A DNA stretch of 63,509 bases, the filler included, from Kipferlia bialata (taxonomy: Eukaryota): assembly GCA_003568945.1 (NCBI GenBank). It is 4 parts of 4 records of this genome, joined end to end, with 100 filler letters (N's around TTAATTAATTAA, not from the genome) between each part and the next. Parts side by side here need not be neighbours in the genome. Positions count along the whole stretch, not along the records: positions 18,644 to 30,908 come from BDIP01000473.1; 3 more parts are not named here. One strand, given 5' to 3'. Each line of letters begins with the position of its first letter. The stretch's first letter is position 1. The notes under the pieces are model-generated. The model did no database searches. It was not told the DNA's origin and worked only from the letters and a program-made list of their open reading frames with translations. This document shows, one piece after another, positions 12,821 through 43,377 of this stretch. A program made the position numbers and the translations under genes.

Positions 12821-12862
<42 letters not shown>

Positions 12863-14002: not shown

Positions 14003-14036
<34 letters not shown>

Positions 14037-14239
14037 TTATACTAATGTCCAGGCCAAGGACGACATCATTCTGGAGCAGGAGGACGAGGTGACAGACCTC
14101 AAGGCAGAGCTCACGGCACTGGCCAACGCACTTAGCAACACTGGTTAGTACATTTGTATATATATGGTTTCTATGTATATATATACACCTCAAGGCAGAG
14201 CTCACGGCACTGGCCAACGCTCTATCAAACACAGGTCAG

Positions 14240-14272
<33 letters not shown>

Positions 14273-15407
14273 GCATGTAGTTTCTATGTATATATATATG
14301 CCTCGAGGCAGAGCTCACGGCACTGGCCAACGCTCTTAGTAACACAGGTTAGCACACATTTCTCTCTCGCTCGCTCTCCGTCTCTCTTTCTCTATTGATT
14401 CGTCTTCTCACTCTTTTCAGAGGCCAATATGGGTCTCTCTGCCCCTCGGTCCCCCATGTCACCTTTCTCTCTATCTCTTTCTCTCTCTCTCCCAATATAT
14501 ATAGATAGATAGATGTCCAATGCCATACCTAACTCCGCAGAAGCTAACATGGGTCTCTCTGCCCCTAGATCCCCCATGTCCCCTGGGGCAGCCAGGCAGT
14601 ATCTGGAGCAGAGTCTCCTTCACAAGTGAGTGTAATGAATGTATATATATATATTAGTATTTATATGTGTATATGTATATATATGAGTACATATCTATGT
14701 ATGTCCACTGGGGCAGCCAGACAGTGTCTGGAGCAGAGTCTGCTGCACAAGTGAGTGTATTATATATATGCACACATTCATATGTATGTATGTGTGCATG
14801 TGTATATGTATGCATTCGTATACATTCTTGATACTCATCCCAGGCTCTCTGTTGCCAACCACTCTCTGGAGAGCATGCGTCTGCAGCTCACAGAGTCAGA
14901 CAGACAGGTATATGCTCTTATATTCTCTCACATTATTATATGATATATACAAGTATACATATATATGTGTATATATGTCATATACATTCAGCTCGCAGAG
15001 TCAGACAGACAGGTGTGTGGATATAGATAGGTAGATAGATGTATTGATACTGACACTAATAGTAAATGAATACGAAGCTATCTCACCCCAGCTGGAGCAG
15101 TCCAAGAGCCGCTACCAGGCCATCAGGGCAGAGTTCCAGGTACATGGAGTGTCTCATTATTTATACATGTATATTATATATATATATATATGTACACTGT
15201 ACATATATATATGTATATATATATATATATATGTGTGTATATATCTTCCAGGCAATCAGGGCAGAGTTCCAGGTATATATTTCAGTGTATATACAATTGT
15301 GTATAATGTGTATACAGTGATATATACACATTCCTACCCATCAGGACAATGCGGCTGACAGGGCCAAGGCCCAGTCCGAGAGGGACACAGCCATGTTCGA
15401 TCTCAGG

Positions 15408-15438
<31 letters not shown>

Positions 15439-17989
15439 CCTTTAGTTTCTTATAGTGGATAGCGGACTATATATGTATGCTGACACCAGCAATGCTCTGG
15501 AGGCTCTGGAGACCCTGGAGGCCGAGAGGGAGAGAGAGACTGCTGCCTGGGAGGAGGAGAGACAGGCTGAGAGGGAGGAGAGAGAGAGAGAGTTAGAGGA
15601 GGCCAGGCAGGAGAGAGAGGCAGAGGTAACGACCGCCATCTATATTGTGGAGTTCTATATAATCATTAACATGTAGATTGAGCAGCACTCCGAGCAGCGT
15701 CTGACTGATGCCGAGTCCCTGATCGCACAGGAGGAGGAGCTGGTGGCACTTAGAGCCAAGCTGGAGGTATATCAATGTATATTTTNNNNNNNNNNNNNNN
15801 NNNNNNNNNNNNNNNNNNNNNNNNNNNNNNNNNNNNNNNNNNNNNNNNNNNNGAGGGCTAAGCTAGAGGTGTAATATATATGATCAATATATAAGTATAT
15901 ATAGTGTATATATATATTCGTGTGATATATTTCTAAACATGAGGAGGAGCTGGTGGCACTTAGAGCCAAGCTAGAGGTATATATATACATACTCACATAT
16001 ACGTTCCGCTATATTATATACTCAGTCTTTTGTCCTAATAAGTGTTTAAGAATTGTACACAGCAACCTATTACCTTGTCCACCGAGGCTGCCCTGCCCTG
16101 TGCCCAGGAGGAGTGTGCATTCATATATATATATATATGAATATAGAGAGAGTTATATACATACATACATATACAGTTAACTCCTAGGATACCGAGGCTG
16201 CCCTCTCCTCTGCCCAGGAGGAGTGTGCCTCCCACAGACACACGGAGGAGACACAGACACAGCACCTGAAGGCAGCTAACGAGGTAGAGTATATATACAG
16301 TGTGACTGTATAAACATATATATACAGTGTGACTATATATAGAGAGAGTGGCATATGTATAGACACACGTAGGAAACACAGACACAGCGCCTGAAGGCTG
16401 CTAATGAGGTAGAGTATATATACTATAGCTACTTCTAGAGAGAGAGGGAGAGAACACCGCGGAGACACAGACACAGCACCTTAAGGCTGCTAATGAGGTG
16501 TACACTGTGTATAGACTATATGGATACTGTAAGTTAATATATGTCTATACTATGTCACTGACATACCTAGGCCCTCGAGGAGCGCCTTGTCCAGATGGAC
16601 GCTGAGCTGGAGGCCACGATGGGAGTACTCAAGGAGAATGAGGAGCAGGTATTGTATTATATAGTTGATGTTTATTAATAGAGAGAGAGAGAGAGAGAGT
16701 ATGAGGAGCAGGTATTGTATATGAATATATATGTAGGGTATTCTTCCTACCTTACCCCAGGGCCAGCGTGACCGTACTCAGTACGACAGTGACCTCAGGG
16801 CCTGTGAGGATGCCAGGGAGAGGGCTGTCGAGAAGGTTGCACACCTCGAGAATGAACTCGAGAAGACCAAGCAGAGGTATACATCTGATACTAATGTATA
16901 TTTTTATATTGTTAATCATTTATATTCTTTATACACTGATTTTTCTATTGATGTATCTATGATTGTTATTGCTCCTGGAGACAGAGCTAGAGAAGACAAA
17001 GCAGAGGTATATATATGTGTGTAAGTATATGGATATATGCCTCTTCTTACCCCAGACTGGGCCTCATGAGGCAGACACTGCTGCAGAGACTGAGGTCCAC
17101 AAAGCCTGCTACTGCTCCTAGGAGAGAGGCCACTCAGGTATAGTACAGTGAAAGATAGAATACAAAGGCTTTAGTATGTAAATTGTGGTGTATATATATT
17201 GTACTGAGTCTACTGCTGCTCCTAGGAGGGAGGCCACATTGGTTGGTATTCCCATTTGTTTAGGAAGTGTGTGACTCTCAGACGAGACTCCTGTATGCAT
17301 GAGTGTACATAATACTCCATCCAATTCTCACCCCTAGGCCCCTGCCCGCCAGTCTGCACCAGTGCAGTCACAGCCGAGGTAAATAGTAATATATATATTA
17401 TAGAAAGAGATATATATAGATAATACATTATGTTAGTGTATGTGCCAGTGCAGTCACAGCCAAGGTGGGTACCTCTATACGTATCTATATTTATTAATAC
17501 ATTTAGTAATATTGATACATATGCAGACTACGAAGTAGCATCTGTGCCTGTCCAGTTCCAGCCAAGGTGGGGTTATATGTAAATGTAAATATTCAGATAT
17601 ATTTGTGTTCCAGCGCACTGTACATACTGCTATGGTACACTATAGGTGTTCATATTAGTATTCTTACCCTAGGCCCAAGTCCCCTGTGACCACTGAGAGG
17701 GTGGTGCATGCCATAGACGCAGAGGGGGGAGACAGGTAGGGGTATTGGTCCCACCTCATATTCATTCTCTCTCTCTCTGCCTCTCTACATATACATATAT
17801 CGCTAACATCTAGGGAGGGTGTCCCCTATGAAATCATGGACTTTGACTTCTCTCTCTCTCTCTATATATATATACATACATGTCTTTAATCTTACCTCCA
17901 GAGAGGGTGTCCCGTATGAGATCATGGACTTTGACTTTGATGGAGACGACACAAACACAATGTCTCTCATGGACCTCGCCAGGGGATAA
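12201..17989 (+). CDS. Long coiled-coil protein (about 19 exons; start exon unresolved)
   Basis: Phase-consistent exons: ASLTALESKHASLNE, NARALQQLKRENEDLKK, AKDDIILEQEDEVTDLKAELTALANALSNT, NALEALETLEAERERE, ALEERLVQMDAELEAT. The last exon EGVPYEIMDFDFDGDDTNTMSLMDLARG ends at TAA 17987-17989. Confidence 0.82.
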
Positions 17990-18543: not shown

Positions 18544-18642
18544 NNNNNNNNNNNNNNNNNNNNNNNNNNNNNNNNNNNNNNNNNNNNTTAATTAATTAAN
18601 NNNNNNNNNNNNNNNNNNNNNNNNNNNNNNNNNNNNNNNNNN
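18544..18642. other. Artificial contig linker (N run + TTAATTAATTAA + N run)
   Basis: Six-frame-stop spacer flanked by Ns, identical at three places in the window. Confidence 0.95.
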
Positions 18643-18687
18643 NTATACTACACAGTGCATACATACCATTCTTCTAATATGTGTATA

Positions 18688-20860
18688 CCTGCGTCCACTG
18701 CGTTGTGCCACTCACTGGCCAGGGGGCCCTTAAGTAGGTCACCGATGTTCCTGGGTGTTAGATATCCACCATTTCGGTGCAATACAATGGTGATAGTGTA
18801 TATCATTACTATCAATAGTGTACATGTAATGCAGGTGGGCCACTGAGGAGTGTACACCCAGCCCAGCATATACAGTCATACTTTAAATACTGTGACTGTG
18901 TAGGTATGTGTATATACCTTGCCCTCTTAAGCAACTCCACCACAGCCGAGTCTGCCCCATCTGCTGTGCATACATATAGTATACACACAATATATATACA
19001 CTCATAGTGTATACTATATATACGTACCTGGCTCTCTTTAGCAATTCCACCACAGCCGAGTCTGCCCCGTCTGCTGTGCATCTACCCAGTCGGTCGGGCT
19101 CATCCTCAGTGGAGCCTAGGTATCAGGATACAACGCATATATACAAGTAGTCGTTTTGAATGAGTGTATTGATACAATCCAAAGAACATGAGTATGAGTG
19201 GCACTGTTTCGCTGACTTCAATACAAGTAGATAGATAGTCAAGAGTACATTATTATAATCATATACCTAGTAACGATGTGAGTATGAGTGGCTCTGCCTT
19301 GCTTGCTGCCAGTTCACTCAGCCACTGCTCAATGCCCTCAGAGACACCTGGGGGAGTCAGTCACTAATCTAATGAAAACAGTCACTAATATAATGATTAC
19401 ATTCGCTCAGAGACACCTGAGGGTCAGTCACTAATCTAATGGATATATATATAAATATATAGCGCCGCTAGCTAATTGATACTGACACCAATCTACTGGA
19501 TTCTGACTTGGACCCATTGGGAACTAGACCAATTATAATGAGTGCGTTACGGATACCATCGTGTATTGTTACCTAGCCACACGTCAATGTCCAGTTCACT
19601 GGCATAGGTGGCCCCAGCAGGGCCATTCTGACAGGTAAGATAGTCTAGTACAGGAAACTCCATCAGCTAGCAAGAAGTGACATACCATAGGTGTGTATAC
19701 CTCTGTACTACGGATAGCGCATATAAACATGTATATATATGAATGTCTCTGGGCGCGCATACCTCTGTGTGTGATACCGCAGCCACTGTGGTTGCCTCAC
19801 TGCCCCTGACATTAAGGGTGTAGAGAGGGAATACAAAGGGTGTAGAGAGGAATATTGAGGCTATGCACAGAGAGGATGGACAAAGGTACATATACTAGTG
19901 TTGGAATGACCATAACAAGAGTTTAGATACCTATATATACATATACATATACCTAGATACATCTGAAAGTGTTGGTGGGAACTCCACTGTCTTCTGGTGG
20001 GCAGGGGCGGCCTGAGGTTAGTATATATACATAGAGAGAGAGAGAGAGAGATGGAGATGTAACTATATATATATATATAGAGAGAAAGGATACTGTCTTC
20101 TGGTGGGCAGGGGCGGCCTGGGGTCAGTGTATATGAATCTCCGTGTAGAGGAAGATAGAGAGGGAGAGAGAGGGATGCTCCAGTCTTCTGGTGGGCAGGC
20201 TTCATACAGGAAGACAGAGCGTATGTATCTAAGTAGTACCGTTGGAGACACGTGTGTACATAAATTCATGGATATATATATAATACATATGGAGAGAGAT
20301 AGACAGAAATATAGATGGTACCTTTGCAGTTGGTGACACTTGGGTGGACACGGGGACTGGGGTGAGTATAGAACTAGAATCAATCTCTGTATTTGTAGTA
20401 AGTACGTTGGAATAATCATGATCCATCGGCATAATGTACAATTAATGGGTATAGTACCTGGCGTGATGCGTCTCTTGGCCCCTGGGGTGGCACTAGTGCT
20501 CAGCTGGCTCTGGGGGTCAGGTACATACAACCCTATACGTTGTGACTGTACATATAGTATACATGTAAATATCAATACCTTAAGATCCAACAGAGAAGCT
20601 CTGAGAGCACTAATATCATACATTAATATCCACAAATATTTGCAAAGTATCATATAAAATACCTGCACATGCAGTGGCCAGAAGGGGACAGGTCACATAC
20701 ATACACACGCATATATATATATATATATATATATATACGTATATATGTATATATATATAAGTATACTAATACCTGCACGTGTAGGAGTGATGCCCTGACC
20801 GTGGCCAGAAGGGGACAGGTCACATGGAGCAGAGTGGCCTCGCTACATGGTTAGCTAGAT

Positions 20861-20898
<38 letters not shown>

Positions 20899-23800
20899 CA
20901 GGGTTATATAGAGGCAGGAGTAGAAAGAGATATCCACCCAGGTAATTCACCACACAATATCATTATATCTATATATACAAAGAGATATAGATAGGGATGG
21001 AGAGAAGGACACACTACCTAAACACCACGTTCTCACAGACCCTGGGCAGTGACACCCTGTTGACTAAAGGGTCTAGGTAGGCACGGTTGGTGTTTCTCTC
21101 ATAGGCACTGAGGACGGAGCCTATTGGTCAGAGTAACTAATATATCAATACACGTACATATGTGAGACAGTCCCCGAGGCATAACAAGTCACCTTGCAAA
21201 GTACCCTTTCTTAATACATATCCTCATCGCAACAATATTGTGGTCTTAAACAAGTGATTGAATAAACACTCAAAATATATATTCATATCAAAAACAGATT
21301 CATATACTAAGCAACGTGAACCTGTGACATCTCTCTCTGAACTCATATTACTTTTGTACACGTATTCCACTATACATAATGTATACGTATATTTAAACAA
21401 TTCTTGTACCTGTGACATCTCTCTTTGCACTGCTCCGTAAATTATTGATACCTAATGCTATACTTGCAGTAAGTATATATATACACTTAAAGTAAGTAAA
21501 TATATACACTGATATTGTACCTGTGACATCTCTCTTGGCACTGCTCTGGCCTAGAAGGGAGGTGCCCAGGCCTGGTGTGAATACAATATACACATGAAAA
21601 CTATATGCATATATATATAGAGAGAGAGAGAGAGGGAGAGAGAGGGAGACAGAGACAGACAGAGAGAGAGAGAGGTTGCAAAAGCAGGGAGGTGCCCAGG
21701 TCTGGCATTAGAGAGACACCAGTATTCATTAGTAGTAAATATACATATGTCTGCTGTGTAATGTTATATCTGTTAAACGAAGTACCTAGCCTAAGACTGT
21801 CAATCTCTGACAGTAGCACTGCATACTGGACCAGACAGGCACGGGAGGCACCCTGAAGTCATTGGATGGAGGTCATAAGATAAAGGATATGGAAATACTT
21901 ACAGTTATGAGTACTACAACTCTTGAATATGTAACATATAGAGTGACACACAACATAAATACACATATATACTACTACACATATACCTCCTTTGGGTCTC
22001 TCATGTACTCTGACAGGGCACCCAATATATAAACGTGCTATATATATATATATATACATATATATATAAATACTGAATACAGATCATATATTTCACTGAT
22101 ACCTCCTTTGGGTCTCTCATGTACTCTGACAGGGCACATATACATATACTAGTATACATATACATACATATATATTTACACATATACACAAATAAATATA
22201 TATATATATATATATATACGTATACTACTACACACCTCCTTTGGGTCTCTCATGTACTCTGACAGGGCACTCCTAGTGGACACCAGGATGGCCTAGAGTC
22301 ATGCATCAACAATAATTAAGTATCGTATACATAGAAGTGTTCTAACATGCATTGCACTTTAGATATACATATGACAGTGCACTCCTAGTGGAAACCAGGA
22401 TGGCCTAGAGTCAGACACCAAATACTAATTAAGTATAGTATATACATAGCAGTGTTCTAACATGCATTGCACAATATATATACATATGACAGTGCACTCC
22501 TAGTGGACACCAGGATGGCCTAGGAGTGAGATGCATAATATACTATGGTACTGTAAACATATATGGACTAATAAATATATACATAAGACAGGGCACTCCT
22601 AGAGGACACCAGGCCTGAGGGTAAGGATGTATACATATAGCTATACATCCTATGTATACATGAATACGTGATAAGGAGAATATGGCTTCCGGTGGTATTG
22701 GTTAGAGGGACACGATAACCTGTAGACACATTCATATACAAAATACTTCTAGTTGCACCTGCAGTGTTGGGGAAAAGGCCCTCACTCCAAGGGCCCTGTA
22801 CAGCTTGGTCAGGCTGGAGGTGAGAATACATTGATAGTATCAATATACTATAATAATATATTAATAGTAATAAGAGTATATATTAACATATATTAATAAG
22901 GGCCCTGTACAGCTTGGTCAGGCTGAGAGTGAGATACTAAAAGATATATCGTTTGGGTAGCGATATTGCTACTACCACATAATGTGTATTCAGCCCGAAA
23001 CAGTTTTGTCAGGCTGTTACAGTACCTCAGTAGGGCTATGGTGCTTGGGAACCTCATCAGCAGGGCATAGAGGGAGACAGGCAGGGCATCCTGGTCCTGA
23101 CTGAAGGCCTGATACAATGAGACTAATCTACTGGTACCAGAGAGGGAGTATATATACGAGTGTACATGTATACATGTGTATGTGTATACATGTATATATG
23201 TATATACTAATACACATACCTGCAGTGTGCAAGGAAGGGCTCTGAACTGGTCAGACCTAGCTGGGGGTCAGATGTAAACATGTACAAACATTTATGTAAA
23301 AGAGAAGAGTCAAGACTAATCCAACGATCCTGTACATGGTGCAACCATGGGTACACACATACGTATATTTCAATACATAAATACTCACTCTGTCTTGTGA
23401 CTAGTCCAATGATCCTGCACAGGATGCACCCGTGGATGAGGATGTACTGGCCAGTGCTGAGTGTAAGTGGTGTAAACACATATACCCAAAAATAAATGTG
23501 TATATATGTGTATATACAGAGATAGAGAGAGAGAGAGAGAGATGCACACGTGGATGAGGATGTACTGGCCAGTGCTGAGGTCAGCGGTATATAGATAGTA
23601 TAGGGGGGCAGATGGAGAGAGAGAGAGGATCAAAGGATGAGGATGTACTGGCCCAAGTGTTGAGGGATATATATATATATATATATATATATTCATATAT
23701 TCACATATATACCCACCCACCCACATACACACAAACACACATACATATAGATAGAGGGAGAGAAAACCAGGGATCAGAATCAACTGTGTGTTATACGTTC

Positions 23801-26071
23801 CGAAATTGCTTCTCCATCGTGCACCACCCCCATACACACTCAATTGAACATTTCCATAATAGTTGGTATGTAGTATGGTATGTAGTATGGTATGTAGTAT
23901 GGTTGAATGTAGAATGTGTGTCCATACCTAGAGTGCTCTGCCTCTGCCTGTTCCAGTGCCTGAGGTGAGATATGTGAACAAGACAATCCGATTACATATG
24001 AAATATCTGTCTATATATATACATACCAGTCCTCGGCTCCAGTGCCTGACGGTGGAAGACTACACTCATATGTACATAGTATATGAATGGTATATACCCT
24101 CAGTGAGATAATATGTATATACTATACCTGCACTAAACACGTGCACAACTGCACTGTGAGGTCTGATGCAAACCCCTGGTGCAGAGAGGGGGCCAGGCTG
24201 GATATGACACTGAAGAGCCTAGAAGTAAGTTGCAAACATTAGCTAGAGATGCTAAGAAGTAATATATCAATAGAATATGTACACTATTATACATTTGTGT
24301 CTAAATGTGTAATCATGTGGTAGAGAGGGTGCAAGGCTGGATAGGACACTAAAAAAACTGAGGAGTCAGTAAAATACTACTTAGAAGATTCACATAATAT
24401 ATGTACCTATCTGCCGCTGCATCCGTGGCACAGTGCCCATACTCATGTCTAGTGGGACCCATCAGACGCTCCTCCATCAACCTGATGTTAAGGGTGTAGA
24501 GGGAGAGAGAGAGAGAGAGAGAGATGAAGCTCCTCCACCAATATAGCAATAAGGGTGTAGAGGGGGAGAGAGAGAGAGGACTCCTCCATCAACCTGGCAA
24601 GAAGGGTGTAGAGGGAGAGAACCGTGGCGGTGCATCTCTGGATCCAAACAGTATCTATGTAACTGTATACACTCACCTCTTTCTCGACATGGCACTCTGG
24701 TCGATATACTCATTTCTATCTATAATACTAAATACTACTGAATACTACTAAATACTACTAAATACCACTGTATACACTCACCTCTTCCTCGACATGGCAC
24801 TCTGACCGCCCTCGCTGTCTGGTGGTCAATAAGAGTCAACAGGAGATATACATACTTGACAATGACAGGGCTGCCCTGTGCGTCTCTGCCACCAGTCTCT
24901 CTCTCTCTCCCTCTCTCTCTCTCTATATATATATATATACATACCTAGAAGTGATATGGCCGCCCTGTGTGTCTCTGCCACCAGTCTCTCTCTCTCTCTC
25001 TCTCTCTCTATGTGTATATATATATATAAATATACTTATATACCTAACAGTGATATGGCTGCCCTGTGTGTCTCTGCCACCAGTGTCTGTATCACGGCAT
25101 TGGACCACTGGAGAGTGTCCTAGATATTATGGGAGTGGAGAGAGAGAGAGAGAGAGAGAGGAGTAATGTTGTCAGTATATAGAGGGAAGAGAGAGAGAGA
25201 GGTAATGTTAGACCACTGGAGAGTATCCTAGAATATAGAGGGAAGAGGGAGAGAGCGGAAGTAAGATATACCTCATTAGTGGTAGAAGCACTATTGTATG
25301 AGTATAAAGATCCTAACCTGCATCTTGAGTCTCAGCAGGATGAGGGACCTCTTCTCAGGGTCCTGGGGGGTGAGTGACAATAATACATTCATGTATATAT
25401 GAATAATAATAATAATGTGTATATATATATATACACGTCTAAACCCTTCTCTGGTCCTGGTGAGTGAAATCTCCCATTGAACTACAAATGTGTATACCAT
25501 ATAGGTAGCAAAGAGACACAGTTATACCTCCATTCTGCATGCCCCAGCCACCAGTCTGACCTCACTGTCAAGGGCACGGGTCATCCTAGGGTAAGGGTAT
25601 ATATATATATACACCATATAGCACACGTCTACTATCACTCTATATATCTCTTTGACCCGACTGTCAAGGGTCATCATCGGGTGTTACGACCAAACACATA
25701 TACGATAATACTACTAATGAATTTGTATATTATAGATTTGTATATACATATGAATATAGACCTCACTGTCAATGGCACGCGTCACCAAGCGAGATAAGGC
25801 AAAGGGGAATACAAATATACATATATAGTGGAGTACATAGAATACACATTTATACAACGTCAAGGGAACGGGTCATGCCAGGGGGTTAGCACTCATCTGA
25901 ATTCAATTCACAAATATTCATTAGCCAGATATATATATACATATATATATTTATTCATATATCGCAAGTGAACTCTCTGTACCTAGGTAGGGTCGGCACT
26001 TGGTAGAACCTCCTCATATACATTACAAACCACGAAACAACAATAGTGAATATATAAGTTGTAGTTATACC

Positions 26072-26109
<38 letters not shown>

Positions 26110-28967
26110 ACTGTACCTAGGCAGGGTCGGCACTTGGTAGAAGCCCCTGTTGGACTTCCTCTCAGTGCCTGGGTCAGCATGACATCGATATACCAATACT
26201 ATATAGACATTTACACTACTATTACATACACATATACTATATATATGTAGATAGTACCTGTGCCCTGGAACGGGTGTATGATGGTGGGCAGGAGAGCACC
26301 GACAGGGGTGGCCTGGATTGTAAGAAGAGAAAGAGAGACAGAGAGAGAGAGAGTCCGGACAGGGGTGGAGTGGATTTTGAGAAGAGAGATAGACAAGGAG
26401 AGAGGGATGGACACAGATAGAGAGCGCCATCTGGGTGGGCAGAGAGAGAGAGAGAGAGTGCGGACACGACTGGTCTAACGGCAGGAGACACACACACTAT
26501 CTCTAAGTATAGCTAGGCCAGTGACTACTCTCTCCCCCCCTCTCTCTCCATATATATATACGTATTCATATATAGTTATATGTATACCTGCTCCTTACAC
26601 ACCCCAAGTGCTGTCTGGGCCAGTGACTGTGCAGTCTCAGAGGGGCAGATGACTAGATCAGTGTCTGTTATTAGTATTGTATATATTTAATATATACATA
26701 GAGAGAGAAAGAGATAGCAATATATGTATATATATATAGAGAGAGAGAGAGAGAAAGAGAGAAAGAGAGACTGTGCAGTCTCAGATAGAAATATGACAAG
26801 GTCGATACATACTGTAAGTAGTTGTATATTAATATAGAGAGAGAAAGAGTGTGGGAGAGTGAGTCCCACACTCTTCCAATGGACTAAAGAGTGGTTATAT
26901 AGAAACACTATATATACATATGGTGAAGTACCTGGAATGGGGCCACAGTAACTGGCGGCACACTCTCTTATAGCTGCACAATATTCAGTTATTGATAGAT
27001 ATAGATACACATACAAGTATATGGTATATATACATATGGTGAAGACCCTGGAATGGGGCCACTGAAACTGGCGGCACACCCTGCCAGTGCACACAGAGAA
27101 TAGATATAGATATATATGTACTAGTATATGGTATATATATATAGTATATAGTACCTGGAATAGGTCCTGAATAGCTAGCCGCACACCCTGCCAGTGCACA
27201 CAGGAAATATAGTAAGAGATACTTATAAAATATATATGTATATATATATATATAGTATATAGTACCTGGGATAGGACCACTGTAACTGGCGGCACACCCT
27301 GCCAGTGCACACAGACAGTGGAGAGGGAAGGGACAGAGGAACCTGAGTGAATTGGTGTAGGGGGAGAGGGGGGGAGAGAGGGTACACAGAATGTGCAGGG
27401 GGAAAGGACAGAGGAACCTAGGTATTAAGGGTGTAGAGGGAGAGAGAGAGAGAGGGGGGGGGGTACACAGACAGTGGAGGGGGAAGGGACAGAGGAACCT
27501 AGGTATTAGGGGTGTAGAGAGAGAGAGAGAGCACTGACGGTGTATAAGGAACGGCATCAGACTTAGAAAATGGATAGAGGATAGAGGTTGACAAAGAGAA
27601 CCCAAGTTGTAGTTGTGGGTGGTGTAGATATGAGTGAGTTACATACCAGCTGATGATGTGACCAAAGAGTACACCCACTGCCTCATGGGGTATGGGGGTG
27701 GGGGTGCTGGGTATGTCACTCTTGGGACCATTGTTACTGGGATGAGATTACTTAAATACATATATATATATGTACACTTATATATATATACACAAATGTA
27801 TATATGGGGGTGCTGGGTATGTCACCACCGCTGCCCTTGGGACCAGACATGCTGGGATGAGAATATACGTATACACATCCAACCTATTCAGCTATATTTA
27901 CATACCCAATTGGCATCATGCACCCAAAAATAGATGAATATTACAATTATACAATAAATACACACAGCGTCACAATATATGTATTGTTTGTCTTAACATA
28001 TATGAATTCATCCATACCCAAATGGCATCATGGACACACACACACACAAATATATATACATAATACCCCATAGATATAAATCTATATACATATATATCTA
28101 CATCCATACCCAATGGCATCATGGACACACATATATACCCATAATACCCCATATACATATATATATATATATATAAATGTAAATATACAAGTAGATATCC
28201 AAGTGTATATCCATACCCAAATGGCATCATGTATGAATACATATTCATATCTTCCCCATAGATATATATGTATACATACTAATTACACAACCCATACCCA
28301 AATGGCATCATGGACACATCCCCCAGTCCACCCACAAAGGACAGAGGGTCATCAGATGCAGTGGCCTGACATAAGGACCATTTATATGTATATACACATA
28401 TACTATATTATTATACAAAGGACAGGGGGTCATCGACAGGGGCAACAGTAGTCTGAGGTGAAAAGCACTATATATATCAATGTATACTGTATGATTATAT
28501 ATTCAAGCCCACAAAGGACAGAGGGTCATCAGAAGCAGTGGCCTGGTATTAGAACTGTAAATAGAAACTCTTAATATCTATATATTCATTTACATTGGTA
28601 TATACTGAATAGAGATAAAGAATAGTCCATCAGAAAGGACCGGGGGTCATCAGAATGCGGTGGGGGCCTGACATAAGCACGATACATCTACACTAAATAT
28701 GCGTGCAAATCACAACTTACGTTGAAGGGTGTAGTTTGGAAGTGGCTACACAAAGTATGATTATACATACGATTATATACTAAACATATACACTATAAGA
28801 GCAACATACTAATTCGTGAATATGTGTATAGTATTGAGTATACTGCATAATAACACACTATACTTACGTTGAAGGGTGCAGCTGGGAAGTGGCTGCTTGT
28901 GGTACTTGGTGTGATGTAGTCTCTGAGGAAGAGTTCCCTAAGGGCCTAGGGTGAGAGAGAGGGAGAC

Positions 28968-29001
<34 letters not shown>

Positions 29002-30367
29002 AGACTTAGTGATGTAGTCTCTGAGAAACAGTTCTCTACGGCCCTAGGGTGGGTATGCACAAATGTATAGAAAGAGAGAAGGAGAGAGAGAGTGTGTGTG
29101 TGTACCTTTGCAAGTGTGGATGAGTCAAAGTCAGTGGTTTCCGGGGTGGAGCCATCCTGCCTGGGGGTAAGCAGAGATGGGCGCAACATGCAAAGAAATT
29201 GTAAGGCGTATAGTATAGAGTATGTGGAACGATGTATTTACCAAAATACTGTTGCAATCAGTACAGTGCCTACACATACACATACACATATATATGTACA
29301 TTATTGTGGTTATATATCCCTGCACAGTATCCCCCTGGCTGCATATGTCACTTGGCATAGTATATATGTGTATATAGGCATATATGTATATACATACGAA
29401 CATATACACATATATACATTTATGTATATATATATATATATATATACATATATACCTGGACAGTATCGCCATGGCTGCATATGTCACTTGGCATAAAAAT
29501 ATATGAGTGTATATGTGTATATGTGTATACTTTTACATACATGTACTATATGTGTATACAATACATGTATTACCTGCACAGTATCCCCATGGCGGCATAT
29601 GTGACTTGGGCTGTGAAGTGCAGACGGTTCACCTGCCATTATTGGATGTAGAGGGGGGGACGGAGAGAGCGGGAAGGTTAGACACAGAGTACAGTAGCTC
29701 AACGTGACATTATCGGGTATTCAAATATACATATTCCACACTGTATGCCACCCCTCTCTCTCTCTCTCTCGCTGAATATACTAATATAGACACACATGTA
29801 ACACACACCATAGTTAGCCCCGCTGTCTCACAACTCTTTCCTTCTCTGCATACGTATACATATATCTGCTAATGTGTATATATTGACACACCTTATTGTA
29901 AGCCCCACATGCCTCACTACCGCGACCAAGGCCCTGAAAGTGAGGGTACTAACAATCCGACCACACCGTATTCACAACACATAATTACACTTATTCACAA
30001 AAATATACATGGTATATATATATATATATACATATATATGTCACTTGATCACTGACCGATATACACGACTCAATGGTCAAGAATGAAAAGAATCAATATC
30101 CGATACATGTATGTGGGTCGAACCGAATGCTCTTTCTCTCTCTCTCTCAATTAGCGAGATAGAGTAGTATATATTCATGCTAAATATACCATACCTGTGT
30201 ATGTGGATCGAACCCGAATGAGAAACTGGCAGGACGCTGGGGATAAGAGAGGGTAGAAAAAGGGAGAGAAAAACTGGCAGGACGCTGGAGATAAGAGTGT
30301 ATAGAGGGAGGGAGAGAGAGAGAGAGAGAAAAAAAAAACTGGCAGGACGCTGGAGATAAGAGAGGGT

Positions 30368-30422
<55 letters not shown>

Positions 30423-30598
30423 AAGACAAGAGCGGGACTCAGTAATTGACTGGTCTACGGAGTATGGAGAGAGAAGAATGAGAGTTCGTATATAGTTCAG
30501 AATATATATATTGGTGTGTAGCATATACCTTATTGAGCGTCTCTGATGCTGGGCTGTGTATGACATCGGAGGAGCCACTGAGATAGTCAATGGTGGAC
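18688..30598 (-). CDS. Large hypothetical, probably alpha-helical (HEAT/ARM-like) protein; about 33 short exons, truncated at both contig ends
   Basis: Continuous phase-consistent chain from STIDYLSGSSDVIH (30528-30598) through VNRLHFTAQVTYAAMGILC, FLCPFPLHCLCALAGCAASYSGPIP, LFSVISSLAPSLHQG, AFSQDQDALPVSLYALLMRFP and GASRACLVQYAVLLSEID to NIGDLLKGPLASEWHNAVDA (18688-18750). No family recognised. Confidence 0.78.
22268..22522. repeat. Tandem duplication of a roughly 115-bp unit made of an exon 5' end, its acceptor and intron sequence
   Basis: CACTCCTAGTGGACACCAGGATGGCCTAG...ACATATGACAGTG is repeated, with intron sequence also shared between copies. Confidence 0.85.
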
Positions 30599-30908: not shown

Positions 30909-31008
30909 NNNNNNNNNNNNNNNNNNNNNNNNNNNNNNNNNNNNNNNNNNNNTTAATTAATTAANNNNNNNNNNNNNNNNNNNNNNNNNNNNNNNNNNNN
31001 NNNNNNNN
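30909..31008. other. Artificial contig linker
   Basis: N run + TTAATTAATTAA (30953-30964) + N run. Confidence 0.95.
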
Positions 31009-31070
31009 ATACCCACCCCCCCTCCCCCCCCCCCCCCCCCCCCTTCATCTTGTTTCCCCCCTCACCCCAG

Positions 31071-34000
31071 TGAGTATGTAGTGGTGTCCTTCGGTCAGGC
31101 CCTAGTACTGATCAATGCCACATCTGGAGAGACAGTGCAGCGGTACCAGTGCAACAATGCAAAGGTATATATACCATGTATTGAGAGTGAGTATACAAGG
31201 GTATATGTATACCCCCTCCCTCACCACCCAGGCCCACATCACGGGTGTGTCCTTCCTCCCATCGTGTGTGGGTGAGTTTGTGACCTGTGACACAGGGGGT
31301 GTGCTGACGAGGTGGAGTGTTGCATCCCAGTGGCACTCAGAGGTCATGGGGGCATTGAGGGTGCCTATGCAGGTGGGTGGGGGTGTATATATGTAGCATA
31401 TCACATGTATATGTAGTATATCATCTGTAGTGCAAATTGTGTATAGTAGCGTACACTCGTACACTCCAACCCCAGGGTGTCGTTGCCATCTCTGTGAGTG
31501 CGACCAGTGAGATCAGTGCCCTCTCCCCCAGTGCAGGCCCAGACACAGAGGGTGCAGTCAACAACCTCCTACTGAGGCAGAAGGATGGGGGTATGGCTGT
31601 GTACTGTATGCAGCAGAGGAGGGTGGTCTATAGGGTGCCCCCTGCACACCAGGAGACAGTGTTCTGTGTCGCATCGTGCCCGGCTGACCCTAACCTATTT
31701 GCCACAGGTGCGCTGATGCCATGTATATGTATCATATGTATCAGCAGTGGCCGTCGTTATTAACTTCCGTCTCTCGCTTACTCGTGCATTCACCCTCAGG
31801 TTCATATGACGGCACTGCCCGTATATGGGACGTTGAGGTAAGGCGAATAGGTTCTACTAGTCTCTCTCTCTCTCTCTCTCTCTCTCCCCCCCCCCCACCT
31901 CCAGTCCATGTCTCTCAAGGCCGAGTGTGGGACAGTCATTCAGACCAGGAAGACAGGGTCCCTGGAGGCTCTAGGTGAGTGGGTGTTGAAGAGTCTCTAG
32001 ATTGTGTAGCGACTTCTTACCGCTGTCTCTCATCCATCACCTCTTACCCATCTCTGCCACTCTCTCTCTCACCCCAGGCGAGGTCTCCACTGTCTTCTCG
32101 GTGGCCTTCTCCCAGTGTGGCAGGTACCTGGCCACCGGTGACTCCACAGGCAAGGTGTCTGTGTACACCACTAGAGGCGTGGCCCTATCCTCCGTCCAGC
32201 ACCACTCAGGCCCCGTCTACTCCATGCGCTGGGTAGGGGGTGGTAAGTGTGCAGTGGTGCCTAGAAGCAGTGGCCCCAAGTCCCCGGCCTCCCCCAGGGG
32301 TGGGGTGGCAGCTGACACTGGCGTCATAGTCACAGCCTCTTTTGACTGCACAGTCGGGTTCCTCAGCTTCTCCCCCGACCCCGTACCCACCCTACGCTCC
32401 CTGGGCTGCATCCACACCCCCAAGCCATGCTTTGGGGTGGCTGTTTCACCCCTAGGTCTCACAGCTGTCTCACAGCAGAACGGGGAGGTACGTGTACCCA
32501 TGGCGGGTGTGTTGGGGTGATTGATACTACTCACTGATAACTAGTTTGTCTGAGGTACTTACTGTCAGGTGCTTGTGTACAAGTTCGATCCTGTGAAGGC
32601 TCTGTCCATCGCAGACAGCGTCCACTACCCCTCTCCCCCTGGTGCCTCTGGCCCTTCATCCTTCCCCACCTCCCCCACGAGTGTTATATCCACACACAAG
32701 TCGAGGGTGTTCTGCATTGAGTTCTCCCCCCACCATGGCCATATTCTGGCAGTTGGGTCGGATGATGCGTCTATATCAGTCCATGCACTCAGCTACGACG
32801 GGAAGGTGGGGTGGATAGTATGTATATATGTACTATATCACAGTACATGAGTTCTATGCGCCCTCCTTCTCCTACTCATCCTAGGACAGCAGCCGTGTGT
32901 GTGCTCTGAATGGCCACACCAAGCGTGTCCGTCCCCTCCTCTTCCACCCTGCCCTTCCCCATGTCCTCATCAGTGGTAGCTGGGATGGGACAGTGCGGGT
33001 ATGGGACTATGCCAGTGGGACATGCCTCCACACAGACTCACACTCTGCAAGGTACACACACTCTCCCTCTCTCCCTCTATTTATCTCCCTCCCTTCCTGA
33101 TCCCAGCCACGTGTATGGTCTGGCCGTCCACCCCGATAAGCCGTTCTCTGTCCTAGTTGCTAGCAGAGACCTCCTCCTGCGGGTGTTTGATGTACGGTCA
33201 GCCACCATCGGGGGTATCAGCCCCTATGCCGCGTGTGTCTCTGCCGACACCCCCAGTGATGTCCTGTCCTCTGTGCTCATGGATGCACCAGACGTAAGGT
33301 ACAGTCAGTGTATATATCATATATATATTACATATTTATTTATATATAGCATACTAATACCCATTCTGCCACTCATGATCAGGCAGATGAGGGCGTCTGT
33401 GGCAGGCAGGGGCTTCCCAGGTGCCGCCTGGGAGGGTGTGACTGGGGTAGGGGCTGGGAGGCTCAGCAGGTCGATAGCTGCCGCACCCGAGCCCGACCAG
33501 CTGGCCGCCCTTCTCGGGTACTTCCACCCCTCCTGTACCCATGCCCCTACCCTGGTGGTTGAGAGTACGGCCCATGTCTCACTAGACCAGTACAGAAGGT
33601 GGGTATCTATTAGCAATGTCTACCTCTGCCAATGGCCCCTCACCCCAGCTACTGTGCCGCCATCATCGCCCATGGGGTCAGGAGCATGCGTGCCCCCTCT
33701 ACCTGTGGGGCTGTGGTGCTAGACCCCGAGGAGGAGAGGAGACAGAGGGAGGGAGATAGGCTGAGGCGGCAGCGGTCTCCAGCCCGTCCCAAGTCCCCAA
33801 CCACTCCCCTACCCCCTGTCAAGAAGACCCTACCCCCCATCAACGCTGGGGCATCCGGGTCTCTCTCCCTCGCCCCCCTCTCCAGGTCCCCTGGGGGCCC
33901 AGCCCTCAACCCCATGTCTCCCCTCTCCCTAGACCTCTCTAGGCCCTCCTCTTCCACTGCGAAGCCCATACCCACTGGCACCTCTACCAATGTCACAGAC

Positions 34001-35635
34001 AGCGCCATAGACAGTGAGGAGATTGACTCTCCCTCCTATGTACTTCAGGCACTCGAGAGCCTTGTTCCAGACCTCCCACCCAGGGGGCCTAGCAGGCTGG
34101 TCCACCTACTCAACGTCTGTCTATCCCTATGCGTGGCATCCTTCGATATGCACTCCCTCCTCGAGCTCCTGTCTCTAGCAGGACAGCCCACCCTCGCTCT
34201 CTCCCTTGCCCCCATCTGCGTGTGGCCCTATGCCGCCCCTACCCCCTCTGTAGACGTGGAGAGGTACATGGGGGGGCCCTTCACCCCCCTCCCCAGTATA
34301 GTACAGGCAGCTAGGCTCCTGGCTGTGGGACGCGTTGCCGAGTCCGTCAAGGCCCTATCCGTAACTCTCTCCCACAGACAGTGTCTGGTGCTGGCAGGTG
34401 GCCTCACCTCCCCTGCTAGTGATGCCCTACTCAAGGGTGCCTCCCCCGAGGAGAGAGAGGCTCTGGCTGTGCAGTATGTCACGGGTGCAGCACGGGAGAT
34501 GTGCACAGATGGTCAGCCCATAGCAGCTGCGGCCCTTCTAGCCGTGTACCCCCCCTGCAGACAGGATGCCGTCCGTGTCCTGTTAGACTGTGGCCATCCC
34601 ACACTTGCCTATGTCGTGGCTACTGGCCTAGAGGATGACCTGGATGCAGAGGTGGAGGGGCAGCTCGGCGTGGTAGTGGAGGCCCACCTGGCATGTGCCG
34701 AGTATCTATATGCCACTGGTCTAAAGGAGAGGGCTGTGGAGATTGCAGAGGGTCTGTCTCTCTCTAAGCCTGAGTCTGACGATATAGTTGGGGTGGGTCT
34801 CTACCTGCGCTGGCTGCGTCTGCAGACCTCCCGTCCCCTGACCCCTGTCCCTTCTAGCCCAGGTACCCCTGCTGCCTCTCTCCCCACCCCCTGTGCTGCC
34901 ATGACCCCCCCTCTCTCCCTGGAGGAGGTGGGGGAGAGAGACTGGGTGGGGCTGGGCAGGTGTGTGCTGCAGTACATACAGGCAGACAACCTCCCTGCCG
35001 CTGTGCGTACTGCTCTCACAGCTGCTGGGCAGGCCGTCTCTGTCGACAGGACCCATGCTCTGACATCATATGTGGCACCTCTCACGGATGAGCCCAGAGA
35101 GCCCTTGTCAGTGTGTAACCTGGCCCCCGGTGCCCTCGCTGTCATAAGGTGCCTGTGGGGCACAGACATCACCACGGCCACATGTGCCGAGGAGCCACAG
35201 CTGACACTACTCTCTGCATACCTGGGTGGTATTGCGGCATATGAGCTGGGCAGTATCGGGGCTGCCCAGGTACTGTTCAATCGTGCTCTCTCTCTTGCGA
35301 AGCGCCTCCCGACCCCCGAGGCTGGCACCCCTGCCTCTTATGTCTCCAAGACTGACATCACAGTGAGACTGGCCGGGTGCGGCATGAGGCAGGGTAGCGT
35401 GGAGGCAGAGAGTGACCTGAGGATGATGGCCAGTGGTAAGGCGCACTCCGCCATGGTGTCTCTGATGCTTAAGCACGGGGCGCCCCCTAGTACAAGGGAG
35501 AGGGGGATGCCCATGGCCAACCCCTTCGCTAGGGGGGTGTCCACCTACGAGGACGTCCTGTCGATGGAGACGTCAGTCTTTGATGGTAGCATGCACACAT
35601 ACAAGTGCGGGTGCCCCTCAGTGGACTACAAGTAG
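31071..35635 (+). CDS. WDR17: WD40-repeat protein WDR17 ortholog (5' truncated at contig start; about 11 exons)
   Basis: HQETVFCVASCPADPNLFATG|SYDGTARIWDV, HKSRVFCIEFSPHHGHILAVGSDD, LNGHTKRVRPLLFHPALPHVLISGSWDGTVRVWD and HVYGLAVHPDKPFSVLVASRD match the WDR17 repeat series as I recall it. A long helical C-terminal exon 33649-35635 with an NPF motif ends in TAG. Confidence 0.82.
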
Positions 35636-36277
35636 AGGGACCGGAAGGGACTCTCTCAGTGAAGGAGTCATTGGGGAATTGCGGCAAGCGAAGCCAATTC
35701 AAATATATATTCCCTTGCTGTCCAGATTGTTTTCATTGTAGCATTGTTTCTGTTACTGTACAATGTACAGTGTACATGTCCGGAGTGATTTCTCTACGTG
35801 TTCATAACGCTATCGTTGCATATCTATCATTCAAAGAGTATGAAAGGGGTTCTGTTTGGTGTTCTTGACATGAACCATAAGTTATAGACAAAATGCACTT
35901 ATACGCAATAAGTGACTTTTATGTGGTTGTTGCATCGGAGGTGAAAAGTGTGATTCTCGATCGGGTGGAAGAAATACTGTGGTCGCAAGCGTCATTTACT
36001 CAGGTGTCTATCGAGACTGTGACATGGACTAGAGCGTCACTATGAGTAATAGTTTAGCTCTCAGCTACCGCATAAAGTATCTCCAATGGTCCTTCATATA
36101 TTAGTATCAGTATCAGTATCGTGATTCGCTTATCTATTTGCTGCTAATGTAACTGTGGCAGTTCCACCCTTTGCGCAATACTGAGCTTACTTTGTGATAA
36201 TGGTGGGAACTTCTACCAGCATATTGCCAATCAAACTGAGTGCAGCTGTAGTTCCTACACTGTAGGCTACAGTGGCA

Positions 36278-37544
36278 CTAAGTTACAACGAAGGCCAACG
36301 AGAGCAACTCATCTAAGGCCTCGAGGTCAATGTCGGCCACTACTATGGCCCCATCGTGTATCAGTACAATGGTGGTGGGGTTAATCTGTAGGCTATTAAT
36401 AGTGGACATGTTCCAATCGTTCCAATCGGGTTGGTGCCAGGCACCGTGCCTAACGAGGCCCCGGATCGAAGTCTCCACGGGCGACAAGGCCCCAGATACA
36501 GGATCGAGTACTACCACCTCGTCATAGTGGAACATGAGACAAACTGCGTCTTTGAGAATCGCATATGTGTCACAGTACTCAGAGTCCGTGGCAATAGGCG
36601 AGAACCCTGAGGAGGGGGAGAAGGACAGGATGTGCTGTGAGCCCTCATCTGAGTTGTCGGGAAGAAGACAGCATACCATGTCCCTGTAGACGAAGTTGAG
36701 AGGCGGATCTCTGTCCTTAAACATGTCTGGCACGGTGTAAGGCAGTTGCTGCCACCTATCCAAACTGGGATCAAACTGCCAACAGTCATCGGAACGGGTC
36801 ATAGATTTCTTGCAGTACCCAGAAGTTCTGGAATTTGGTCTCCAGTAACAAGCAGTAACTCCACCTGCTACTATGAGAGACCCCTCTACACACCCTAACA
36901 TGGATTCGGTGCGAGGGCAGGGCCAGACCGCACCGTCCCGGTGTGGTACCATGCGCCACTCCAAGGTGTCGAGAGATAGGACCCAGAGATCAATACTCTC
37001 TAGGGTCACGTCTCTGGCTAATCCTGGTGGATGCTCTGTAATCTCCGCTCTTGTCACAAGAGAGTACAGATGCCACATGTACTGGGTACCAGTTCATACG
37101 TGTCTCCCCAGTCGGGTACAGGTAGAACTGTCCCCTCTAGCGATAGGTCAGGAAGCCATGTGAAGAGCTTGAGCCTATGACGTGAGACAGAGGGTTGGTA
37201 GTGAAGACGTTTGACACCTATCTCAAATGACGAACAGCATAAGCAGACACTCTCTTAGCTACTACACTCAAGGGCATATATGGAAAGTAACAGAGAGAGA
37301 TGTGGAGAAATACTAATGAGGATGACTTCTATACACTGAGTGAACGATACTATGGATACCACAGCGTCTTCTACACTTTTCTCGGTTGAATACAACAAGA
37401 CAAACACTACCTTGTGGGGTGGCGGAACTCTGCTAGGACAGTGTTCAGGCTGACATAGTGGAGGTTGGCAATGCCCTCGTAATCCTCCAGAGAGTGAGTG
37501 GCCACTACTTGGAACAGGTCAGGTGCTGTAACGGGTAGCTGCAT
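36278..37544 (-). CDS. Kelch-like beta-propeller protein, 2 exons, with an apparent frameshift near 37075
   Basis: Kelch-type segments LWVLSLDTLEWRMV, WPCPRTESMLGCVEGSLIVAGG and CWQFDPSLDRWQQLP. Exon 1 (37411-37544, MQLPVTAP...) joins in phase to LKLFTWLPD..., but the frame shifts before HLYSLV. Confidence 0.65.
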
Positions 37545-37926
37545 CGACGCTGTTGGTGTGCTGAGGGTAAATAAGAGAGATCGGAACACACCATTCCCAC
37601 AGACCACTTGATCCCGTGAAGGGATCCCATCACTGTAGAGCAAACATAAATACAGTATACCATATATAATGTACTACAGTGATCTACTCACCGTAAAAGA
37701 GACTCTGTTACGTATATCTGTGATACTTCCGGTTGGACATGTATGTATCCTCTAATGAAGAGGCCAATTGGTACGAGTGTTCCTCTATTGAATATGTAGC
37801 ATTACCCTGGACATGTATCAACTGACATGATTAGAAATGGTAAATTAAGGCCTGGGTACCACTGCGTAGTACTGAGGGCTACTGGCGAAAGCAAACGACG
37901 GCAGATGTAGAGATTGGAGAGTCGCC

Positions 37927-40900
37927 TCACCGCTTGAGGATATCAGCGATGGTGGCGTTTGTGGTAGTCTTGGCCGACTGGGAACTCATACCGAGACCCC
38001 CCATCTTAGCTATCAGTGACTGCATGCCATCGGCCTCTGTCCCCACAGGTGCAGACCCAGGGGGAGACAGGCTGGTCTTTGCAGGCCTGGGTGGTGCTTT
38101 CGGTGCAACACTGGATGTCTCAGGGACACGTGGCCTAGCATCACCCCCTCTGGTTTCTCTAGAGTCTCTCGCAGGGGGTCTAGGTGGGGCACGAGGCTGG
38201 GCCTTTGGTGCACCACTCGATACACTACTAGAGGTGGGTCTAGGTGGAGCAGTCGGCTTCTGGACTACCCTATTGGGCTCAACCATGCCACTTCTCTCAG
38301 CCCTACTCAGCTCTCTGATGCCACGCAGCATAGCCCAACTCTCCCTACTCTCCCACCCAGACACATTTCCTACCACCACCAAGGCCTTCCTCGCTCTAGA
38401 CAGGGCCACCACCACCCTAGCACTCTCGCAGCTGAAGGCCGTAGGGGTAGGGGAGCAGAGGGAGAGGATGATTGCATCCGCCTCCAGGCCCTGGTACTCA
38501 TCGATGGTGGCAGCCCTCACCTCCTTAGTGTCCACACCCGCTGAAGATAGCATGCGGGACACAAGTCTGGCCTGCTTGCGGTATGGAGATAGGACAGTCA
38601 CCGATGATATCCACCCATCCTTGCTAGTCAGGATGGTCTCCACCAGTGCCACACACTCTCTTGCCTCCTGTTCATTCTCCTCCCTGCACCCGTTCCTCCC
38701 CTGTCTGATCCTTATACAGCTGACAGGGGGCAGAACCCTGGACCCACGTCTCTCCATCTTGCCTCTGGCTCTCTCCATCTCACCCACCCTGCCCCCGTCT
38801 CTGATTCTGGCAGGCACCTGACCCAGGGACACCAGGAGAGGGGTGTAGGTGTCACGCCACGTGTCTGCCAGCTCAGGAACTGCCCTACACTGTGTATCAA
38901 GTACAGTGACTGGGGCACGGGAGGCTACTAATCTGGGGGTAGGAGGTGGTGTACGATACATATACTATCAACAACAGGTGCTTGAAGCAAGTAGAGTGAT
39001 CTGGTTATCCCTTACCTGTGCAGCAGACTGAAGGACGCCCTAGCCCTACAGGCCAGAGAGGCATCCCTAATCAGAGGGGGTAGCTGAAGAGGGTCGCCTG
39101 GGGTAAAGTGGGGGGGGTCATGTACACGAGGTATGGTGATACTATAGCATGGTTGTGATCTATCAATATTATGTACCTAGTAGAAGGGTGTGCTTGGCAC
39201 ATGCTGACAACAGAGGCACAAGCTCGAGCTCTGGTATTCTGGCAGCCTCCTCTATGATCATGAGAGAGGGAGGACATCTGCTGTTGAGCAGACCACATAC
39301 AGACAGAGAGGAGACGGTACCGGCCATGAGACTGACCCTGTCGGCAACGTGCTTCCTAAATGCCCCTCTTCCCTTGCCTAGTAGGTTGAGAGTGGCCCTA
39401 GCCATATGGGCATCCTCAGGGGAGCAGCTAGGCAGGGGTTTGGCTGTTCGGAAGGGAGAGAGGTCGTCGAAGGGGTGGGACCGGTTGACTGAGAGGTGGC
39501 CTGTGTATGGCTCTAGGTCGTCCAGCACGGCCCCGACCCATGCCTCCTCAGACTGGGGGTGGATACCGCTCTCCCTCGTCTGTCTCCAGCCCCCACCTAC
39601 CCTCAGGGCACTCACCCCAGACAGCCCCATCACACTCTCTAGCATATGGTCCACAGCCCTGTTGGAGTGGGCACATAGGACTAAGGGGCCTCGGTTGGAG
39701 TGCCGCAGGGGTTCTCTCAGCAGGTCCCTGAGCCCTGGCCCCCCTGGTCTGGCCTGTGCCCTGAGGTATAGGGCAGATAGGGTGGCTGCAGTGAATGTCT
39801 TGCCACACCCAGGGGGGCCAACAATGACAGAGACGGGGTAGTGGAGAGCACGCACAATGGAGGCAACCTTAGTATGAGACCGTTAATGTATATATTGCAC
39901 ATCGGAGGTGGAGTTGATGATAAAGAACACGGAGAAGAGACGAAACAATGGGTCTACTAACCTGTGCCCCTGTGAGTGCGGGTGCCGAGGGCTCAGGGGG
40001 AGGCACTGTGACACCCAGGGTGGGCCCTCCCTTGATAGATAGGGTGGCCATCCGGTGGGTCCCTCCCTCTGCTGGTCCTGTGGACAGAGACACCTGGGAG
40101 GAGCGGGCACCCCTTCCCCCCCTTTCTACCCCTGCCTCTATGGCTACAAGACCCTCAGACAGTGGACCGACACCGGTACCAGGCATAAGGGGAGAGAGGG
40201 AGAGAGAGAGGGGGCTTGGGTCGGGTGTAACCTCTGGGGAGTAGAGCCAGGCCGGCAGGGGAGGAGGTGAGGACGCAAAGCCTCTAGTCAAGAGCAGTGT
40301 ACGCACATGGTTGTGGAAGAATGGGGGCATGATACCCACGTAGTATGCGTTCCCACTACCACCCCCGTCCTCCCTCCTGCTCTCTATCTTTCTGATCATC
40401 CTCTCACACTCCACATCGTGTGGGGCAGCGGGTGACAGGGAGACAGACAAGTCGAATGAGTCAGCATGCCTCTCCCTTTCCCACTTGCTTGTAGCTAGAC
40501 CTATACCACTCACAAGGCCGTCACTGTCGGTGCTGACAATCACTACATACCCGTCTCTCTCTCTCTCCCTCGGGTGGCCCCTGCCTCTCCCCCTCTCCCC
40601 CTCTCCCTCCTGGTACAGTCTCTCCACACAGAAGGTGTCACCTATGCGATCTGTGATCCTAAGGGGTAAGGGAGCAGTATGTTCATCCGTACACCTTCAC
40701 AGGATTACTTCCCCATTCACACCATATACATACTCATGGATTGGTACCCACCTGTGCCACTTCTCCGTGCTCCTCATAGCCGTACTGCCAACGTCGGAGT
40801 CAAGTTCCATGCCCCTCTCCCTCTCTCTCTCCCTCTGCTCCTCTCCCCCACTTGTCCACCCAGACAGTGCGTCTGAGAGAGTGTCTGTGGCAAATAGGAC

Positions 40901-43306: not shown

Positions 43307-43377
43307 TGTATGTATTCAATTGTGTATGGTTAGTGATGATTATAGGGGGGGGGGGGGGGGGGGGAGGGAGGGGGGGG

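Follow-up and report, generated by a model that had tools for sequence, protein, structure and literature searches.

Introns in the 63,509-nucleotide stretch of Kipferlia bialata DNA analysed here (the window) carry partial copies of the ends of adjoining exons, which we call echoes, and the codons that differ between echo and exon are silent far more often than neutral decay predicts. In the extreme case an exon end has been recoded at most of its last codons with no residue altered. We consider it fairly likely that echoes derive from exon ends that once worked in another, diverged allele of their gene; recombinational repair is the probable process that stranded them in introns.

A 77-nt exon and its five echoes

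The exon that shows the extreme case (27342-27266, minus strand, 77 nt) lies in a predicted gene of 36 exons (18689-30597, minus strand) that has 745 codons without a stop, is cut by the ends of its piece and bears 40 echoes of the anchored set defined below. The host protein may resemble huntingtin; none of the 14 single exons of this gene tried against Pfam had a match. The exon agrees with the gene model and with contig 9 of run X2 (2624 nt), where 27736-27647, 27342-27266 and 26664-26588 are spliced together with no other letters. The upstream exon (27736-27647, minus strand) is spliced directly to 27342 at a CT..AC joint that skips 304 nt, the downstream exon (26664-26588, minus strand) is joined directly to 27266 between record letters 578 and 579, and the loose ends of the contig have the sequence of the next exons on both sides. 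X2 is an RNA run by guess only, and its contig is spliced at GT-AG. The comparison of runs X1 and X2 covers 26575-27760, and the RNA check covers three exons and two adjoining ends. Contig 9 passes over all five echoes of the exon, two at the acceptor side and three at the donor side, and the splice sites used at this exon and its neighbours are the outermost ones. The echoes have zero depth in X2; this reflects a lack of cover and carries no weight as evidence. Over a five-exon stretch the chosen frame contains no stops, compared to 2 and 8 in the other two frames, which fixes the reading frame of the exon. Contig and stops together establish which exon is real, in which frame it is read, and that the two acceptor and three donor echoes are skipped. 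An alternative frame, in which the changes in echo 1 (described next) would fall at second positions, is ruled out by the stops. Upstream of 27736 the gene model and the contig measure 413 and 411 nt, respectively; downstream they measure 1579 and 1968 nt, either because the gene is cut by the piece end or because the model is incomplete.

The 3' end of the exon reads GCC GCC AGT TAC AGT GGT CCT ATC CCA G|gt and encodes AASYSGPIP. The nearest donor echo (echo 1; 27155-27203, minus strand), whose end lies 111 nt from the exon end, copies the last 49 nt of the exon up to an intact GT at 27154-27153, and reads GCG GCT AGC TAT TCA GGA CCT ATT CCA G|gt after seven identical codons. Alignment bears out the earlier note's description of this copy: nine bases differ, at 26, 23, 20, 17, 16, 15, 14, 11 and 5 nt from the donor, seven of the last nine codons are changed (including AGT to TCA) and the same 16 residues are encoded, with none altered. 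When nine random substitutions were simulated, the peptide was preserved in 0 of 400,000 trials. Clustering of the seven changes has a P of 0.006 taken alone, for an echo that was chosen as the extreme case. The first 23 intron bases 3' of echo 1 are identical to those 3' of the real donor, so that the recoded patch is flanked by identical stretches on both sides.

Two more donor echoes and two acceptor echoes, also claimed in that note, were all found by alignment on the minus strand. Donor echo 2 (27048-27097; the alignment was extended to 27104, which adds two edge changes) has three silent changes and one residue change in its core, and its GT reads GG. Donor echo 3 (26932-26966) has the three silent changes of echo 2, two residue changes, an intact GT and an intron flank in common with echo 2. 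Together, echoes 2 and 3 represent a third coding of the same exon end (GGC CCC ATT), with decay. One acceptor echo (27379-27417) lies 75 nt upstream of the real acceptor and has its own AG and branch-like motif, three silent changes and two residue changes; the other (27465-27498) lies 156 nt upstream of the real acceptor with one silent change, and its intron flank resembles that of the 27379-27417 echo and not that of the real acceptor. A 217-codon open frame (26988-27638, minus strand) spans both acceptor echoes, the exon and echo 1. An acceptor echo of the upstream exon (27805-27851, minus strand), which is outside the anchored set, starts differently and differs in length by 9 nt in frame, as would a copy derived from another protein variant.

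One DNA contig of run X1 (27068-27221), with no other letters, covers the intron-like sequence upstream of echo 1, echo 1 itself and the first part of echo 2. X1 depth is 370 on this contig, 321 on the exon piece, and 362 and 418 on the flanks. A (TA)n run between the exon and echo 1 (27222-27264) is bridged by no listed X1 piece, and X1 is possibly the source data for the assembly of this stretch; the placement of echo 1 and the exon on the same molecule is therefore likely rather than proven. In the bin 27175-27214, DNA depth equals that of the single listed contig (the filter omits some records), indicating that no second copy at 85% identity or more is placed there.

Echoes across the window

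Exons were taken from a self-trained gene finder, 16 predicted exons that were echoes or weak were dropped, and each exon was aligned to its two introns. The window has a GC content of 44.8% and 146 retained predicted introns, or 2.3 per kb; the intron density of Kipferlia bialata is 2.45 per kb in the published account (PMC5874029). We identified 166 echoes on 82 of 156 predicted exons. Of these echoes, 147 end no more than 4 nt from the splice site and form the anchored set on which the codon counts are based, with the 19 unanchored echoes dropped. Echo spacing has a median of 105 nt (quartiles 89-117), the unit being about 30 nt of exon end and about 72 nt of intron end, and echoes stack up to four per exon side. 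Donor echoes come before acceptor echoes in all 19 introns with both kinds, which is the sole order that creates no false exon. Median intron length is 112 nt without an echo and 214, 310 and 404 nt with one, two and three echoes; with about 100 nt added per echo, echoes would be a main driver of intron length. Gene finders are misled by them. Window-wide, echoes are found on 3 of 21 exons of at least 150 nt versus 72 of 135 shorter exons (P = 0.0008), and no intron seemingly born from such a duplication was found in the window.

The whole piece at 31009-44916 has long exons and short introns, and none of its 24 predicted exons has an echo. Genes there include a WD40 gene with a TPR-like end (31071-35635, plus strand), a kelch-repeat gene (36278-37093, minus strand) and a superfamily 1 helicase (AAA_11, AAA_12; 37931-39882, minus strand). 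Predicted translations elsewhere give a long coiled-coil-like gene (12201-17989, plus strand), a Ser/Thr-rich gene with one likely membrane segment (55864-63437, minus strand) and a short Asp-Ser-Thr repeat (1440-1500, minus strand). Atlas searches returned leads only, scoring below 0.9. The linkers at 18544-18643, 30909-31008 and 44917-45016 are identical (44 N, a 12-nt stop run, 44 N) and join separate contigs.

In the 147 anchored echoes, 200 codon changes are silent and 144 change the residue (58% silent), where the expected silent share is 23% under neutral decay and 38% if the exon drifts silently too. All 166 echoes give 219 silent changes and 188 that are not. With one echo per exon side, 153 of 263 changes are silent (99 expected), and the excess persists when both ends are trimmed by two codons (120 to 77) and at a transition bias of up to 10. 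It is gone in shifted frames (48/294 and 34/305). Among echoes with at least five changes, 6 of 18 are all silent, compared to 0.12 expected. Silent counts are overdispersed (P = 2e-5), and the ratio of silent to non-silent changes is uneven by region (61/29, 32/31, 51/35, 11/14 and 45/35). All-silent echoes are located at 9279-9328 and 58523-58574, each with seven changed codons, and at 18918-18971, 10291-10327 and 58876-58914, each with five. An all-silent echo at 14187-14232 (plus strand) shows a second swap between serine codon families, AGC to TCA.

The echoes also differ silently from one another. Comparison of each echo with its neighbouring echo gives 52 silent changes and 53 that are not (P = 4e-9 against 23%), and of the changes confined to a single echo 47 are silent and 43 are not, so the echo lineages themselves evolved under protein selection. 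The silent rate is higher in the far echo 9 times and in the near echo 20 times, the nearest echo being no closer to the exon, and silent and non-silent rates show no positive link (rho -0.21, n = 93). Silent distance is thus not echo age, and both results disfavor the idea that echoes are dated snapshots of a fast-changing exon. Silently different codons end in G or C in 125 of 200 cases in the exon and in 86 of 200 in the echo, with 89 silent changes toward a G/C ending in the exon versus 50 (P = 0.001); this suggests that conversion was biased or that the codons of the winning end were under selection. Stops in echoes number 5, with 4.7 expected.

GT or AG is kept in 126 of the 147 anchored echoes, and the intron flank is homologous to the real flank in 45. 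Even among the eight echoes identical to their own exon, seven have unrelated flanks. Donors on unrelated flanks (n = 42) score 2.15 bits, compared to 1.73 for real donors and -0.73 for other intronic GT; acceptors on unrelated flanks (n = 33) score 2.71, compared to 3.86 for real acceptors and -6.85 for other AG. A branch-like motif is present in 18 of the 33 acceptor echoes on unrelated flanks versus 81 of 1487 other AG. Across the window, such motifs precede the exon start by a nearly constant distance, 7-8 nt in 56 of 82 motifs. This position is as in the fused branch point and acceptor of related diplomonads (PMC6679479).

Origin of the echoes

The silent excess, the silent differences between echoes and the intact splice signals on unrelated flanks suggest that echoes were once working ends in diverged copies, and these copies were most likely other alleles. 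Since alleles would share exons and not introns, a broken end could invade the other allele in an exon only. The invading end would copy about 105 nt through the splice site into the other allele's intron; as that intron would be unrelated, annealing back would fail and the end would be joined to the other broken end. One allele's exon end would then work, with the other stranded in the intron as an echo. Repeated events may build the echo stacks, duplications of a whole extra exon would be purged, and use of the outermost splice sites would hide the stranded ends. The mosaic structure of echo 1 calls for an additional step, the least certain of all: either a deeply diverged donor supplied about 22 nt by short conversion, or both flanks were homogenised later.

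Repair synthesis completed by end joining gives tandem duplications (PMC13031629). In fornicates NHEJ and Rad51A are missing and two Dmc1 are present (PMC8516963); triplets with mismatches are stabilised by Dmc1 (PMC6719624), and in yeast donor mismatches are incorporated up to about 40 nt from the invading end (PMC9477423). Mismatch uptake near the invading end might have produced the short patch in echo 1, and the argument from repair genes (Dmc1, NHEJ) applies only if the host is a fornicate. An allele or relative with the echo codons in a working exon was not found, so we infer the donor. A metagenome scan with a degenerate exon-end pattern gave 0 matches, a scan with another gene gave 597 pattern matches and 0 confirmed relatives, and a search of representative sequences with the exon gave one unrelated chance match, P0001. 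Against the proposed stranding of allelic ends, the 23 intron bases shared by echo 1 and the real donor are contrary to a simple deep-allele origin, the seven changes of echo 1 are clustered, and the G/C-ending asymmetry is seen where two working alleles should be symmetric. The intact splice signals of echoes could also stem from nested splicing, which could preserve them but would not favor silent changes.

The donors could also have been a second gene set since lost (an old hybrid, a genome doubling or paralogues) rather than alleles, with the same copying mechanism, though we regard this as unlikely. A second set would explain the very diverged tail, where three cases have seven silent changes in 16-17 codons, as well as the two Ser AGY-to-TCA swaps, and it fits all codon and splice-signal tests equally. 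However, two sources are too few for the three codings at the end of exon 27342-27266 and for the stacks of up to four echoes per side, silent distances range from 0 to 7 and do not form one class, and the depth at 27175-27214, within the records that pass the filter, is that of one listed contig, with no second copy at 85% identity or more.

Similarly improbable, in our view, is that local duplicates are kept faithful to the protein in place, via an occasional swap into the exon or splicing-in. A swap could take place in the 22 identical nt that precede the recoded patch, and use of the echo 1 donor would add 37 codons with no stop. Echoes in an open frame are more silent (19 silent to 3 not, versus 181 to 141 for the rest; P = 0.006), with 12 to 3 once echo 1 is removed (P = 0.11). 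Three of the 10 open-frame echo sites are at exon 27342-27266, echo 1 among them, and the data leave room for occasional use of echo 1 and for selection through such use. Against upkeep in place, open-frame echoes number 10 of 126 with 11.8 expected, echo spacing is even over the frames (54/53/40), and none of the other six most recoded echoes belongs to the open-frame set. Non-open-frame echoes alone are still more than 38% silent (P = 3e-11), and swapping frequent enough for selection would presumably erase the divergence. Selection for in-frame echo use across the window was rejected on the even frame spacing and the chance-level open-frame count. A joint deleting the 111 nt between the exon end and the end of echo 1 is absent among the listed DNA and RNA contigs, which is a weak point against swapping because contigs drop rare variants.

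The same evidence bears on the suggestion in the earlier note that the recoded copy takes part in recombinational switching. The recoding itself stands, well outside what chance allows, and requires that exon versions with different codings recombined. A switching cassette is unsupported: no deletion joint is listed, a swap would leave the protein as it is, and the silent excess holds equally (181 versus 141) for the 137 of 147 echoes that cannot be read in an open frame. A record of past exchange with diverged copies fits the evidence better than a switch in use.

We find it quite improbable that the echoes are neutral scars, that is, local tandem duplications across the splice site that decay at random, with the exon drifting silently or faster than the introns. 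Scars of this kind are known from the human F7 intron 7 repeat (PMC1557585). Many echoes do decay (the 144 residue changes, and stops near the expected number), almost a third of flanks (45 of 147) are homologous, and the G/C-ending bias on the exon side suits some exon-side change. Nevertheless, 58% silent changes exceed a ceiling near 38-47%, the all-silent class holds 6 of 18 echoes, echo 1, the most recoded of all, shows no decay and lies nearest to the exon, and splice signals survive on unrelated flanks. Neutral scarring probably covers a share of the echoes, not echo 1.

An assembly artefact, with two alleles or strains placed in tandem, is very improbable: the unbridged (TA)n run and the possible use of X1 as source data would allow it, but the junction of intron-like DNA with mid-exon sequence and the link between echo 1 and echo 2 are inside one contig with no other letters, depths are similar and not halved, and the X2 contig has the codons of the exon and passes over the echoes.

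Comparison with known systems and wider meaning

In silent-cassette conversion and in mutually exclusive exons, the copies encode different peptides or are whole exons. Echoes are like both in being coding copies, partial or whole, near an expressed copy. They differ in encoding the same peptide, all 16 residues in echo 1, and in having a single splice site per echo, whereas a mutually exclusive exon is whole, with acceptor and donor. Some phages, such as phage 21 in icd, bring along on integration a substitute end for the gene they enter, and the original end stays behind. As proposed for the echoes, the incoming gene end is silently different and the displaced end becomes a partial duplicate; unlike the phage case, neither an integrase nor a mobile element is involved here, and many exon ends are affected.

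In human F7 intron 7, a 37-bp minisatellite lies across the exon-intron boundary and the most upstream donor is used although the downstream donors look functional (PMC1557585). The repeat units there also straddle the splice site, the outermost site is used and the array is tolerated. F7, however, is one locus with near-identical units, whereas here about half of the exons are affected, at donors and acceptors, with unrelated intron parts and silent codon differences. Local copies that include the intron part and diverge at random, as in F7, are not what we see, given the proportion of homologous flanks and of silent changes. Tandem duplications that start by homologous recombination and are finished by polymerase-theta end joining are, like the echoes, head-to-tail copies that create a single new junction and fall into a narrow range of sizes. 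For echo 1 the junction is inside DNA contig 27068-27221, and the spacing quartiles are close (89-117 nt). The duplications described in that work (PMC13031629) are kilobases long and from repair mutants, whereas echoes come from wild DNA, measure about 105 nt, are anchored at splice sites and have diverged as if allelic. Co-conversion tracts beside the homing cox1 group I intron, as described in PMC3192709, likewise bring a short foreign exon stretch together with intron sequence by break repair. The cox1 intron is self-mobile, has an endonuclease and replaces cleanly; here the introns are spliceosomal (GT-AG, with about 72 nt of intron per unit) and carry no gene, and the displaced end stays. 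The silent excess fits an exon tract from a foreign donor, and the donor was not found. A literature search gave no description of echo stacks, with most subscription papers outside the search, and 'duplicat' has 0 uses in the accessible text of the K. bialata genome paper.

That the outermost site is used where a short intron offers several of equal strength suggests that a reduced spliceosome selects its sites by reference to the exon. More tentatively, the genome may continually swap exon ends and splice sites for those of diverged alleles and archive the displaced ones in introns. The clonal genome would then be a readable record of the alleles encountered by its ancestors. It would show that a free-living fornicate outcrosses and is very diverse (a silent distance of about 0.2 per site), and the process would be a route of intron growth. 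If the proposed origin of the echoes is right, allele diversity and recombination would be measurable from a single protist assembly, it would become testable how repair with Dmc1 only and without NHEJ shapes genome structure, and splice sites would be swapped wholesale with the protein unchanged.
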